This document shows positions 38,421-47,280 of a stretch of DNA of 64,000 nt, piece by piece. The stretch is from Minisyncoccia bacterium (GTDB lineage: Bacteria > Patescibacteriota > Minisyncoccia > Phycocordibacterales > CAJBRS01): assembly GCA_038215155.1 (NCBI GenBank), contig JBBQRF010000001.1, forward strand, positions 142,205 through 206,204, read 5' to 3'. Under the pieces are notes generated by a model that did no database searches, was not told where the DNA came from, and saw nothing but the letters and a program-made list of their open reading frames with translations. A program made the position numbers and the translations under genes. Each line of letters starts with the position of its first letter. Position 1 is the stretch's first letter.

Positions 38421-39305
38421 TTACAGACCTTTTTCCGCTTGAATAAATTCGTCTAGCTCTCCGTCAAGGACTTTGTCAACTTGGCTGGTTTCGACGTTAG
38501 TGCGATGGTCTTTGACCATTTTGTACGGGTGCAGCACGTAAGAGCGAATTTGGTTGCCCCATTCTGCGTCCGTGGTTTTAGAAATATACATGCCTTTTTC
38601 CTTAGCCATTCTTTCCTGCTCTTTTAAAGAGTAGATCTTTCCGGCTAATAAGGCCAAGGCCCTATCCTTGTTTTGAGCTTGAGAGCGTTCGGTGTCAACA
38701 TGGACAGCGAGCTTAGTCGGTTTATGAACGATGCGTACTGAAGTCTCGCGTTTGTTGACGTTCTGACCTCCGGGGCCACTTGATCTTTGGAAGGTTATTT
38801 CTATATCATCTTCGGGAATTCTAAATTCTGTTAACTTTTCAAATTTGGGAATAACTTCTACCATGGAAAAAGAAGTGTGACGAAGTTTTTTTGAATTAAA
38901 TGGGGAAAGGCGCACCAACCGATGAACCCCTGATTCGTTTTTTATAGTTCCGTAAACATTTCGGCCGTTGACCTCGAAAGTTAAATTGCGATATCCGCCA
39001 TGATCGTTTTGATTTTGGTGGAGGATGACTGCTTGCCACCCTTTCCTCTCAATAAACTTGCGATACATTTCAAATAGGATGCGGGAAAAATCCTCAGAGT
39101 CGTCTCCGCCGGCGCCGCTAAAAATAGTAATTATCGCCGGGCCAGCGTCGTAGGGACCGCCGCCAGGGTTTGAGGCGGCGGCTTTCAATTCCTGCAATTC
39201 TTTAATGGTCGCTTGGGCCTTTTCTTTATCACTCCAAAAATTCGGCTCCCCTATTTTAGTTTCTAAATCCTCAATTTGTTTTTTAATATCTTTCATAAGT
39301 GCCAT
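38421..39305 (-). CDS. prfB: peptide chain release factor 2 (single ORF, no programmed +1 frameshift; short N-terminus)
   Basis: SPF tripeptide (RF2-specific) and GGQ motif; SD GAGGGA 6 nt upstream of the start; only 16 nt separate it from the upstream tRNA. Confidence 0.85.
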   Translation of the reverse strand: MALMKDIKKQIEDLETKIGEPNFWSDKEKAQATIKELQELKAAASNPGGGPYDAGPAIITIFSGAGGDDSEDFSRILFEMYRKFIERKGWQAVILHQNQNDHGGYRNLTFEVNGRNVYGTIKNESGVHRLVRLSPFNSKKLRHTSFSMVEVIPKFEKLTEFRIPEDDIEITFQRSSGPGGQNVNKRETSVRIVHKPTKLAVHVDTERSQAQNKDRALALLAGKIYSLKEQERMAKEKGMYISKTTDAEWGNQIRSYVLHPYKMVKDHRTNVETSQVDKVLDGELDEFIQAEKGL

Positions 39306-39321
39306 ATGCTTCCCTCGCCAG

Positions 39322-39394
39322 AGCCGGAGGCCAGAATTGAACTGGCGACCTCTGCTTTACGAAAGCATTGCTCTACCAACTGAGCTACTCCGGC
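39322..39394 (-). tRNA. tRNA-Thr(CGU)
   Basis: GCCGGAG-TA-GCTC-AGTTGGTA-GAGC-A-ATGCT-TTCGTAA-AGCAG-AGGTC-GCCAG-TTCAATT-CTGGC-CTCCGGC-T. Confidence 0.8.
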
Positions 39395-39442: not shown

Positions 39443-39708
39443 TGGAGCCGTTGTCCGGGATCGAACCGGAGACCTCTTCCTTCGTTTACACCTCTTTTTC
39501 AAATATATAAGAGGACTAGACTGTATCTTAATCCTTCTAAAGAAGGATTCCTTTGTCAGTCGTTCGAGCGTTTCAAAAAGATACGCTACGGTCTTAACCT
39601 AGGATTTAGGCCTTTAACCGTTATTGAGGATACACCCAAAGAATTACTTCTTTGAGGGGCAAATGTCGCTTTACCATGGAAGTGCTCTACCAGCTGAGCT
39701 ACAACGGC
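39443..39708 (-). tRNA. tRNA-Thr(GGU) interrupted by a 190-nt intron in the anticodon loop (CCA encoded)
   Basis: 5' exon GCCGTTG-TA-GCTC-AGCTGGTA-GAGC-A-CTTCC-ATGGT (39673-39708). 3' exon AA-GGAAG-AGGTC-TCCGG-TTCGATC-CCGGA-CAACGGC-T-CCA (39443-39482). Exon halves pair perfectly in the acceptor and anticodon stems. Confidence 0.7.
39483..39672 (-). ncRNA. group I-like self-splicing intron (190 nt) inserted after U36 of tRNA-Thr(GGU)
   Basis: 5' exon ends in U and the intron ends in G (omega G). Candidate P7 strands GACUGAC/CAGUC with an S-like UAAGAUACAGUCUAGUCC element. Hairpins consistent with P2, P5, P6, P8 (AAUCCUUCU-UUAG-AAGGAUU) and P9. Confidence 0.5.
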
Positions 39709-39735
39709 ATACTTTATATATGCTCGGTAATAATA

Positions 39736-40341
39736 TTATAAAGTTTGTAGATTTTCAATTGATTTATATAAAATATCGCGCAATTTTTTGTTATTGTAAT
39801 AGACAGTAACCACACCGTATTTCGATTTATTTTTATAGGTACCTGGATTTTTTGAAGGAGTAATTATTGTTTTATAAAACTTGTTTTTATCTACCTTTAG
39901 TTTCGGAAGCCAGTAATTAAATACTTCTTCCTCCGACAAATCATTAAAGATTTGCAATCCAAATCTTAATTTGTCTTGATCGATATTGTAAATAATTTTT
40001 AGAAAATCAATAAATTTTATAATCAGAGCAGGATCCGAATTTCCTAGTCGAATTGAATACTGGTTGCGTTTATTTCCTTCTCCCCAATAAAGTCCCACTC
40101 CTATTCCATACAGAAAGAACTCTGATATTTTAAAATTTTCTCTAATTTTAAAAGGGTGACCATTTGGGTTCCATTTTATATAACTGGCGTCAGAAATTGA
40201 TCTTTTTTTAATATTATATTTTTTTATCCAATAATTAACTTTGTTTTCCGAGCATCTCAATATTTGGCCGATTTCAGCACTAGATTTTCTCTTTTTATTA
40301 TAGAGATCTATTAAGGTCTCTTTGGATATTGTTTGCATCAT
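39736..40341 (-). CDS. HTH plus LAGLIDADG-like (homing-endonuclease-like) domain protein
   Basis: N-terminal HTH (SSAEIGQILRCSENKVNYWIKKYNI); motif FLYGIGVGLYWGEGNK followed by QYSIRLGNSDPALIIKFIDFLKIIY, resembling a LAGLIDGEG helix-strand core. Its stop lies 28 nt from the 5' end of the intron-containing tRNA. Confidence 0.35.
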   Translation of the reverse strand: MMQTISKETLIDLYNKKRKSSAEIGQILRCSENKVNYWIKKYNIKKRSISDASYIKWNPNGHPFKIRENFKISEFFLYGIGVGLYWGEGNKRNQYSIRLGNSDPALIIKFIDFLKIIYNIDQDKLRFGLQIFNDLSEEEVFNYWLPKLKVDKNKFYKTIITPSKNPGTYKNKSKYGVVTVYYNNKKLRDILYKSIENLQTL

Positions 40342-46807: not shown

Positions 46808-46884
46808 TGGCGCGGCCGACCGGACTTGAACCGGCAACCTCTCGCGTGACAGGCGAGTGCTCTAACCAGTTGAGCTACGGCCGC
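46808..46884 (-). tRNA. tRNA-Asp(GUC), CCA encoded
   Basis: GCGGCCG-TA-GCTC-AACTGGTT-AGAGC-..CTCGC-CTGTCAC-GCGAG..GCCGG-TTCAAGT-CCGGT-CGGCCGC-G-CCA. Confidence 0.85.
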
Positions 46885-46908
46885 AATTTCGCATTCTTAA
46901 AATACGAG

Positions 46909-46981
46909 TGTCGGAGGTGGGGATCGAACCCACGACCCCGGGCTTATGAGTCCCGTGCTCTACCGACTGAGCTACCCCGAC
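46909..46981 (-). tRNA. elongator-type tRNA-Met or tRNA-Ile2 (anticodon CAU)
   Basis: GTCGGGG-TA-GCTC-AGTCGGTA-GAGC-A-CGGGA-CTCATAA-GCCCG-..GTGGG-TTCGATC-CCCAC-CTCCGAC-A; the 1-72 pair is intact. Confidence 0.8.
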
Positions 46982-47068
46982 ATTTGGTTGGTTAAATATA
47001 TAGGAAATTGCTAATAAAATAAAGATACGTTATATTGGGTAATCTAATCAAAGAGTCACTATTTAAAT

Positions 47069-47130
47069 CGGGGGTGGAGTAACAGTAGCTCGCAAGAGAT
47101 CTATAGACTCATAACCTCTGATGGAGTAAG
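47069..47130 (+). repeat. partial or diverged duplicate of the tRNA-like element (shares GGGGTGGAGTAACAGTAGCTCG and CTCATAACCTC)
   Basis: Direct comparison with 47157-47227. Confidence 0.4.
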
Positions 47131-47156
47131 GTAAATATACATACAATTTTAAATAT

Positions 47157-47227
47157 AGCGGGGTGGAGTAACAGTAGCTCGGGAGGCTCATAACCTCCAG
47201 GCCTCGGTGCAAATCCGAGCCCCGCAA
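47157..47227 (+). tRNA. noncanonical tRNA-like element, anticodon CAU (possible divergent initiator tRNA or pseudo-tRNA)
   Basis: AGCGGGG-TG-GAGT-AACAGTA-GCTC-G-GGAGG-CTCATAA-CCTCC-AGGC-CTCGG-TGCAAAT-CCGAG-CCCCGCA-A. A1/A72 mismatch and A11:U24 are initiator-like; it lacks the D-loop GG and has TGC instead of TTC in the T-loop. Confidence 0.35.
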
Positions 47228-47280
47228 CAAGTTAACGCACATTAGAGTACTAGTGATTTGCACCGAATAATTGGGCAAAT

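Follow-up and report, generated by a model that had tools for sequence, protein, structure and literature searches.

The 64,000-nt stretch of DNA analysed here, referred to below as the window, is bacterial chromosome of ~41% G+C. Its minus strand carries pyrG, ftsX, ftsE, the gene for a 294-aa RF2 (prfB) and an intact tRNA-Thr(CGU) gene, and these flank a tRNA-Thr(GGU) gene that lies in two pieces. In all likelihood the gene is functional, its host is a Patescibacteria (Paceibacteria-like) bacterium, and what separates the pieces is a compact group I intron of 190 nt, lying between U36 and A37. A sequence-only reading of the window had proposed a tRNA-Thr(GGU) gene split by a 190-nt insert that follows U36 and has G as its last base, and all of these features are found on the minus strand:

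39673 to 39708, minus strand: exon 1 (36 nt), tRNA-Thr(GGU) positions 1-36, ending with the anticodon G34 G35 U36 (ARAGORN -i)
39483 to 39672, minus strand: group I intron (190 nt), starting AAAGCG and ending AAACG, with the terminal (omega) G at 39483
39443 to 39482, minus strand: exon 2 (40 nt), tRNA-Thr(GGU) positions 37-76, beginning with A37 A38 and ending with an encoded CCA (39445-39443)

On the minus strand, exon 1 reads GCCGTTG-TA-GCTC-AGCTGGTA-GAGC-A-CTTCC-AT-GGT and exon 2 reads AA-GGAAG-AGGTC-TCCGG-TTCGATC-CCGGA-CAACGGC-T-CCA. Together they form an acceptor stem paired at 7 of 7 positions (GCCGTTG/CAACGGC), a D-arm (GCTC-AGCTGGTA-GAGC), an anticodon stem (CTTCC/GGAAG) and a T-arm (TCCGG-TTCGATC-CCGGA), with the discriminator T followed by the encoded CCA. 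ARAGORN in intron mode reports the unspliced DNA as tRNA-Thr(ggt) i(37,190), and the 76-mer spliced in silico is, for the same program, a normal tRNA-Thr(GGU) with a perfect cloverleaf. The spliced tRNA is 90% identical to the intron-less tRNA-Thr(GGU) of a relative (L056), the differences being mostly paired changes in the anticodon stem. Standard scans had been predicted to miss the gene; indeed, default ARAGORN and Rfam at gathering thresholds both do so, reporting only the five uninterrupted tRNA genes of the window.

We identified relatives of the host by scanning the window's RF2 protein against one genome per species and keeping the best 80 matches (53-69% identity), among which the window's own species does not appear. 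All are metagenome-assembled genomes of the candidate phyla radiation (CPR)/Patescibacteria, except one labelled Bacteriovorax that is probably mis-binned, and most are Paceibacteria/Parcubacteria lineages; by its sequence, the host is a Patescibacteria, Paceibacteria-like bacterium. The order Thr(GGU), Thr(CGU), prfB is widely kept among the RF2-syntenic relatives. The sequence-only reading had suggested looking in relatives for intron-less Thr(GGU) alleles, and 42 such loci were found near RF2, versus five with a split gene (L012, L016, L021, L069 and L077). The window intron and those of the five relatives have a common invariant core: ACGGTTAAAG, AAGACCGT, CGAACGACTGACAA and AAGATACAGTCTA. 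The base A32 was considered as an intron-linked feature and rejected, since 18 of the 42 intron-less alleles also have it.

A wider family, with the shared core CGAACGACUGACAA...AAGAUACAGUCUA, was collected from related genomes and metagenome contigs with a two-block core pattern. The pattern matches at least 126 sequences, of which one is the window, five come from the 80 RF2-syntenic genomes and no fewer than 120 from metagenome contigs. Because ARAGORN boundary calls scatter, exons were mapped by tRNA geometry. All 114 of the 114 members mapped in this way have the anticodon GGT, an insertion between positions 36 and 37, U at position -1, a terminal G, and A37 A38 opening exon 2. In eight further matches the 5' exon can be seen and the junction sequence is ...CCATGGT, such that, among the matches listed, 122 of 122 introns whose 5' exon is visible lie in tRNA-Thr(GGU). 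Two apparent hosts with an anticodon other than GGT (L083 and L120) proved to be artefacts of the D-arm anchor, both junctions reading CCATGGT. The family is strictly specific for the tRNA-Thr(GGU) site over at least 120 environmental copies. The split gene recurs, always with the same splice-site geometry, in five of the 80 relatives' genomes and in no fewer than 120 contigs from metagenomes, which is far more than chance would give. In intron mode, ARAGORN mislabels many members as Arg(GCG), His(GUG), Pro(GGG), Leu(GAG) or Gln(UUG); for the members in L082-L201, L069, L016 and L077, this is because the intron boundary is shifted by 1-3 nt.

Intron lengths among the matches listed are 169-256 nt, with a median of 194, and the window intron is typical of the family. 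The sequence-only reading had placed 190 nt among the smallest, which holds against the 205-nt intron in Azoarcus tRNA-Ile(CAU) but not within the family, where the median is close to 190 nt and the minimum is well below it. The smallest members among the matches listed (L095, 4729-4902, and L102, both 169 nt; L165, 170 nt; L112, 172 nt) have very short P5, P6, P8 and P9 hairpins and a complete core; among natural group I introns, these may be the smallest. The longest (L198, 3875-4135, 256 nt; L104, 609-867, 254 nt) have insertions of about 60 nt in peripheral loops, in P9 of the former and in P5 and P6 of the latter, which are too short for a homing endonuclease.

The secondary structure was modelled as 49 pairs in 10 helices on an alignment of 106 distinct sequences (5082 cells), which is well anchored and was used instead of a 10-sequence MAFFT seed that misplaced the 5' GGU in several rows. 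In the window, the elements of the model are as follows:

39658 to 39675, minus strand: P1, in which GGU and intron AAA (39675-39670) pair with UUUGCC (39663-39658)
39633 to 39657, minus strand: P2 hairpin, its tetraloop being GUAA (GNRA-type), with a single bulged G; compensatory change at 10 of 10 pairs
39627 to 39629, minus strand: 5' strand of P3 (CCU), pairing with AGG at 39552-39550
39588 to 39621, minus strand: P4, ACGGU (39621-39617)/ACCGU (39592-39588), enclosing J4/5 (UAAAG), P5 (39612-39596) and J5/4
39567 to 39587, minus strand: P6 hairpin (AGCGU...ACGCU); 5 of 5 pairs covary
39550 to 39566, minus strand: invariant core block of J6/7 (CGAAC), 5' strand of P7 (GACUG, 39561-39557), J7/3 (ACAA) and 3' strand of P3 (AGG, 39552-39550)
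39530 to 39549, minus strand: P8 hairpin, AAUCCUUC-UUUA-GAAGGAUU; 4 of 4 pairs covary
39519 to 39529, minus strand: J8/7 (AAGAUA, 39529-39524) and 3' strand of P7 (CAGUC, 39523-39519), invariant in the family
39484 to 39516, minus strand: P9.0, GU (39516-39515)/AC (39485-39484), directly before the terminal G and enclosing P9 (39514-39491)

Standard pairs make up 95.6% in this model, versus 78.8% with shuffled partners (a value that none of 500 shuffles brought up to the observed one) and 29.7-42.9% with partners slid by 1-3 columns. Doubly changed cells number 992, versus 303 +/- 25 in shuffles, and the covariation score is 0.475, versus 0.159 for shuffled and 0.06-0.09 for slid partners. Every pair of P2, P6, P8, P9 and P9.0 shows compensatory change. 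RNAalifold, given no structure, predicts P1, P2, P4, P5, P6, P7, P8 and P9, and the window RNA folded alone forms the same hairpins at -55.2 kcal/mol (z = -3.86, with 0 of 200 shuffles as stable). The order of P2, P5, P6, P8 and P9 and the presence of P7 and J8/7, all proposed from the sequence, are borne out by covariation across the 106 homologues and by an alignment to the Rfam group I model RF00028. That alignment runs over the full length of the model (28.6 bits, E = 2.2e-5 in a 551-nt search) and places P1, with the splice site after U36, P2 and J8/7-P7', the first and last of these at high posterior probability.

The guide GCC (39660-39658) pairs with the anticodon, leaving a U36-G wobble at the 5' splice site; the guide of the Azoarcus intron is GUG. 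The GC, GC and UG (columns 3/40) pairs of P1 are each present in 106 of 106 sequences, the three pairs within the intron covary (GU, AU, GC, UA), and P1 as a whole is 97.3% paired. The loop of P2 (L2) is of GNRA type in 100 of 106 members, and the helix itself has, in the window, a bulge and a C-U mismatch. P3 is 99.4% paired; its third pair is CG in 94 sequences, UA in five and UG in five, the window having a compensated U-A. A longer P3 was considered and set aside, as pairs beyond 3 bp were inconsistent in the 10-sequence alignment, judged by eye without a formal count. P4 is invariant and 100% paired, P5 covaries in three of four pairs, and RNAalifold predicts both. The closing pair of P6 is A-U in the window, compensated relative to the usual G-C (AU in 15 sequences, GC in 84). 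P7, GACUG/CAGUC, is invariant and 100% paired; the sequence-only reading had correctly pointed to P7, which it gave as GACUGAC/CAGUC, but the helix has 5 bp and the extra AC belongs to J7/3. J8/7-P7' is AAGAUACAGUC, aligned at high posterior probability to the RF00028 consensus AAGAUAUAGUC.

At the 3' end, P9 is 98.5% paired, with five of five pairs covarying, and both pairs of P9.0 are 100% paired (GC in 55 sequences, AU in 49 and UA in two; CG in 57, UA in 46 and UG in three). This exchange of G-C/C-G for A-U/U-A in P9.0 defines where the 3' splice site lies without recourse to the tRNA model. RNAfold adds the pairs U158-A189 and A159-U188 around P9, which on inspection are not conserved in the 106-sequence alignment; covariation favours the P9.0 pairs G160-C192 and U161-A191. 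A weak P10, in which A37 and A38 would pair with U residues 5' of the guide G, is possible. The following sequence hallmarks of group I introns are found in the window intron: the U-G wobble at the 5' site, the omega G, P3-P9 in canonical order, an A-rich J4/5 (UAAAG) and a J8/7 of AAGAUAUAGUC type.

Covariation between L2 and P8 suggests, from sequence comparison, a tetraloop-receptor brace. We took L2 as alignment columns 53-56 and P8 as columns 196-198/223-227 (39648-39645 and 39549-39530 in the window). A GAAA L2 loop goes with CUA...UAYG in P8, a motif resembling the 11-nt GAAA receptor, in 31 of 58 members, versus three of 48 with other loops (Fisher p = 8e-8); the comparison is exploratory, as the sequences are related and the receptor was defined by alignment columns with the data already in view. 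An earlier, exact regular expression for the 11-nt receptor (CUAAG...UAUG) proved too stringent, at p = 0.11. Members with a GUAA or GCAA loop, the window included, carry plain C:G-rich P8 helices. Compact tRNA introns such as that of Azoarcus have a corresponding L2-P8 contact.

Several points weigh against a functional group I intron at this locus. The RF00028 score, obtained in a search that the sequence-only reading had proposed as a check, has the full-length alignment and low E-value in its favour but is below the gathering threshold of 50 bits, and of five homologues one scores 23.9 bits while four are unreported even at E <= 1. P3 has just 3 bp and few variants (10 of 106 sequences, at one pair), and the invariance of P4 and P7 makes covariation uninformative for both. 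The family was collected by a core motif, so that core invariance within the set is partly by construction, and the shuffle statistics ignore kinship among the sequences. Our view of the genome spans 64 kb, so a second tRNA-Thr(GGU) gene could lie beyond the window. Lastly, the splicing tests reported for Patescibacteria tRNA introns were of Asn and Asp introns only, and included no Thr(GGU) member (Nakagawa et al., 2026; PMC13011429). With regard to the first of these points, the sub-threshold score is a sensitivity limit of the model; the same insensitivity of RF00028 to bacterial tRNA introns has been reported (Nakagawa et al., 2026; Williams, 2020).

We considered whether that score might instead mean that the insert is not a group I intron at all, being a protein-spliced bulge-helix-bulge intron, an insertion element or a gap between chance tRNA-like halves. 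We regard this as exceedingly improbable. The site is 36/37 in 114 of 114 members, rather than the canonical 37/38 of protein-spliced introns. The insert shows U-G at -1, its last base is G, its guide base-pairs with the anticodon, and it has a P1-P9 set with covariation. It lacks repeats and open reading frames, and in a family of at least 126 matches every visible 5' exon is Thr(GGU). The 36/37 site and the group I architecture do not fit a protein-spliced tRNA intron, although no explicit search for a bulge-helix-bulge motif was made.

A group I intron could still be a relic in a decaying pseudogene, with an intact tRNA-Thr(GGU) gene elsewhere in the genome doing the decoding. The limits of the 64-kb view leave room for such a gene, and the intron is missing from most relatives (42 of the loci near RF2, versus five with it). 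We nonetheless consider this explanation very unlikely. Joined, the exons give a perfect cloverleaf whose CCA is encoded; the gene stands where the Thr(GGU) gene of relatives also lies, in the conserved order Thr(GGU), Thr(CGU), prfB; and no second Thr(GGU) copy was found within the window. The window intron retains all 60 invariant positions of the 106-sequence alignment, and its deviations in P3 and P6 are compensatory, a pattern indicating purifying selection. In the published tRNA table, the three genomes with Thr(GGU) introns show two detectable tRNA-Thr genes and most others show three (Nakagawa et al., 2026), which fits a split gene being the only GGU copy in those genomes. Because the invariant nucleotides are retained and the deviations compensated, the window copy does not appear to have decayed, and the intron is very probably functional.

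We propose that the functional intron would splice by the usual group I route; we infer the splice chemistry and its independence from protein from the sequence and from homology to characterised group I introns. In the transcript, the intron would fold into P1-P9, with the guide GCC pairing with the anticodon G34 G35 U36 to form P1, in which the U36-G wobble would define the 5' splice site. The active site would consist of the P4-P6 domain and the P3/P7 pseudoknot, and the L2-P8 contact would brace the fold. An exogenous guanosine bound in P7 would attack after U36. The terminal G (39483), placed by the 2-bp P9.0, would then take the site of the free guanosine, and the 3' OH of U36 would attack after it, ligating the exons into a mature 76-nt tRNA and releasing the intron.

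An alternative possibility is that the intron, though a genuine group I intron, splices efficiently in vivo only with the help of a protein cofactor or chaperone; several group I introns of mitochondria behave in this way. In favour are a minimal periphery, a P3 of only 3 bp, the bulge and mismatch of the window P2, a core divergent from the Rfam model, and published assays that stop short of the Thr(GGU) class. Against this, the comparably compact 205-nt Azoarcus intron self-splices robustly (PMC13168695), and in vitro self-splicing is reported for introns of the Asn and Asp classes in this phylum (Nakagawa et al., 2026). The L2-P8 contact and the covariation of P9.0 suggest a fold stabilised by RNA only, the intron encodes no open reading frame, and Patescibacteria proteomes are very reduced. 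We consider a requirement for protein unlikely.

The sequence-only reading held that group I introns were not known for tRNA-Thr. This is incorrect: Thr(GGU) introns at 36/37 are already listed for three complete Patescibacteria genomes (GCA_001029635.1, GCA_016700375.1 and GCA_030583745.1, two of them Paceibacteria; Nakagawa et al., 2026, Table 1). The classical settings of bacterial tRNA introns are Leu(UAA), fMet, Ile(CAU) and Arg(CCU), and tFind expanded the number of settings from four to 21 (Williams, 2020; bioRxiv 10.1101/2020.01.27.920355). In the survey of Nakagawa et al. (2026), the Thr introns are missed by RF00028 but found by tFind, and two are labelled Arg(GCG) 34/35 by ARAGORN; their branch, within the IA clade, is long, and the survey names them "divergent group I introns", citing Castelle et al. 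(2018). The same survey places no Patescibacteria tRNA intron in IC and gives a minimum of 184 nt among 333 bacterial tRNA introns, a value to which the 190 nt of the window intron come close and below which the family members of 169-172 nt fall. The published Thr(GGU) introns and that of the window are alike in tRNA, anticodon, 36/37 site, phylum and the RF00028 miss; the Arg(GCG) 34/35 miscall by ARAGORN recurs in family members here, such as that in L069, and in both sets the length is comparable to that of canonical compact introns. The window intron is therefore very likely a member of the published class, matched by tRNA, site, phylum and tool behaviour rather than by intron sequence. 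The published set comprises three complete genomes, whereas the family described here has at least 120 metagenomic members, a structure backed by covariation, and lengths down to 169 nt.

The window intron resembles the IC3 tRNA introns in its compact architecture and 36/37 site. Indeed, the introns of Azoarcus tRNA-Ile(CAU), 205 nt, and Agrobacterium tRNA-Arg(CCU), both of subgroup IC3, are also inserted at 36/37 (Reinhold-Hurek and Shub, 1992; PMC13168695), after a third anticodon base U, such that the anticodon is the exon strand of P1. Like the Thr(GGU) introns, they have a compact P1-P9 without P5abc, large extensions or a homing endonuclease, and the Azoarcus intron shares the GNRA L2 loop that apparently docks on P8. 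They differ in host tRNA, guide and core, J8/7-P7' in the Thr(GGU) family being the sequence given above. Unlike IC3 introns, Thr introns are placed in the IA clade (Nakagawa et al., 2026), and the Thr(GGU) family is shorter, by the median and minimum of the matches listed. Closer to hand are the Patescibacteria introns in the genes for tRNA-Asn and tRNA-Asp (IA, 35/36), which come from the same phylum, are likewise missed or mis-mapped by standard tools, have been shown to self-splice, and are suggested to neighbour the Thr introns in phylogeny (Nakagawa et al., 2026). By contrast with the Thr family, they sit at 35/36 in other host tRNAs, some encode homing endonucleases, and their cores differ; for Asn introns, the published examples include ...cagagactagg... 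and ...gagatagtcc... (Nakagawa et al., 2026).

Two further features lie beside the split gene:

39321 to 39394, minus strand: intact tRNA-Thr(CGU), 48 nt downstream of the split gene
39730 to 39758, minus strand: candidate sigma-70-like promoter (TTGAAA-17-TATTAT), 22 nt upstream of the tRNA 5' end, matching at 10 of 12 hexamer positions

Sigma-70-like matches in this AT-rich upstream region are no more numerous than expected from shuffles. A phage- or plasmid-like origin of the locus was considered and rejected; a distant blastn search against 50,697 phage records matched only the intact tRNA-Thr(CGU), and the intron core pattern had no match in 2.9 million viral contigs. The RF2 open reading frame (prfB, 38421-39305, minus strand, 294 aa) aligns to TIGR00020 from profile position 111 onward, and tRNA-Thr(CGU) lies 16 nt upstream of it, leaving no room for the usual N-terminal ~60 residues or a +1 frameshift leader. 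Because all 80 Patescibacteria relatives match the window RF2 from about residue 1, this short form looks typical of the lineage. The sole public contig with an identical FtsE (L001, Logan SRR19962015, 3128 bp) starts exactly at prfB; that short-read assembly breaks at the tRNA-Thr pair, such that the split gene is missing from it.

Other split tRNA genes occur near the same locus in relatives, namely tRNA-Asp(GUC) genes split by 205-227 nt and a tRNA-Met gene split by 224 nt (L005, 2875-3160; L010, 572-853; L056, 2525-2826; L003, 2625-2920; the tRNA-Asp genes being those of L005, L010 and L056). They fit the 35/36 and 33/34 intron classes of Nakagawa et al. (2026). The tRNA-Asp (46808-46884) and tRNA-Met genes of the window are uninterrupted. 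They belong to a tight cluster at 46808-47228, in which the minus strand holds Asp(GUC) and Met(CAU) and the plus strand another Met(CAU)-type gene (47157-47228), which has a lower score (52.6 bits) and a mismatched first acceptor pair and may be an initiator tRNA or tRNA-Ile2(CAU).

What is known in principle is unchanged by the window intron, which is a well-supported further example of its class and not the first. The additions are at the level of the family: specificity for Thr(GGU), a P1-P9 structure supported by covariation and including P9.0, co-variation of L2 with P8, and members of 169 nt. For annotation, the consequences are practical. Default tRNA finders and Rfam skip the gene, so that the genome would seem to lack tRNA-Thr(GGU), the decoder of ACC and ACU, and tRNA counts enter completeness estimates of Patescibacteria genomes; the frequent labelling of family members as Arg, His or Pro by ARAGORN in intron mode is a systematic hazard of the same kind. 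For RNA biology, the family offers at least 120 metagenomic copies at one tRNA site, with no endonuclease and with 169-nt members that are smaller than the Azoarcus intron, and its covariation-backed structure is a starting point for biochemical work on Thr(GGU) introns. If splicing is autonomous, such members would provide a smaller model ribozyme than that of Azoarcus. We suggest, tentatively and with more doubt than confidence, that the Thr(GGU) family may be a distinct, uncharacterised structural subgroup that includes the smallest natural self-splicing group I ribozymes, long retained at one site in reduced Patescibacteria genomes; its members of 169-200 nt would then manage with a 3-bp P3 and no endonuclease, their fold braced by L2-P8 and P9.0 alone. 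If so, the survival of the intron in what is probably a single-copy tRNA gene could reflect a use to its host, beyond mere tolerance, for example in coupling the supply of tRNA-Thr to GTP/Mg2+ status.

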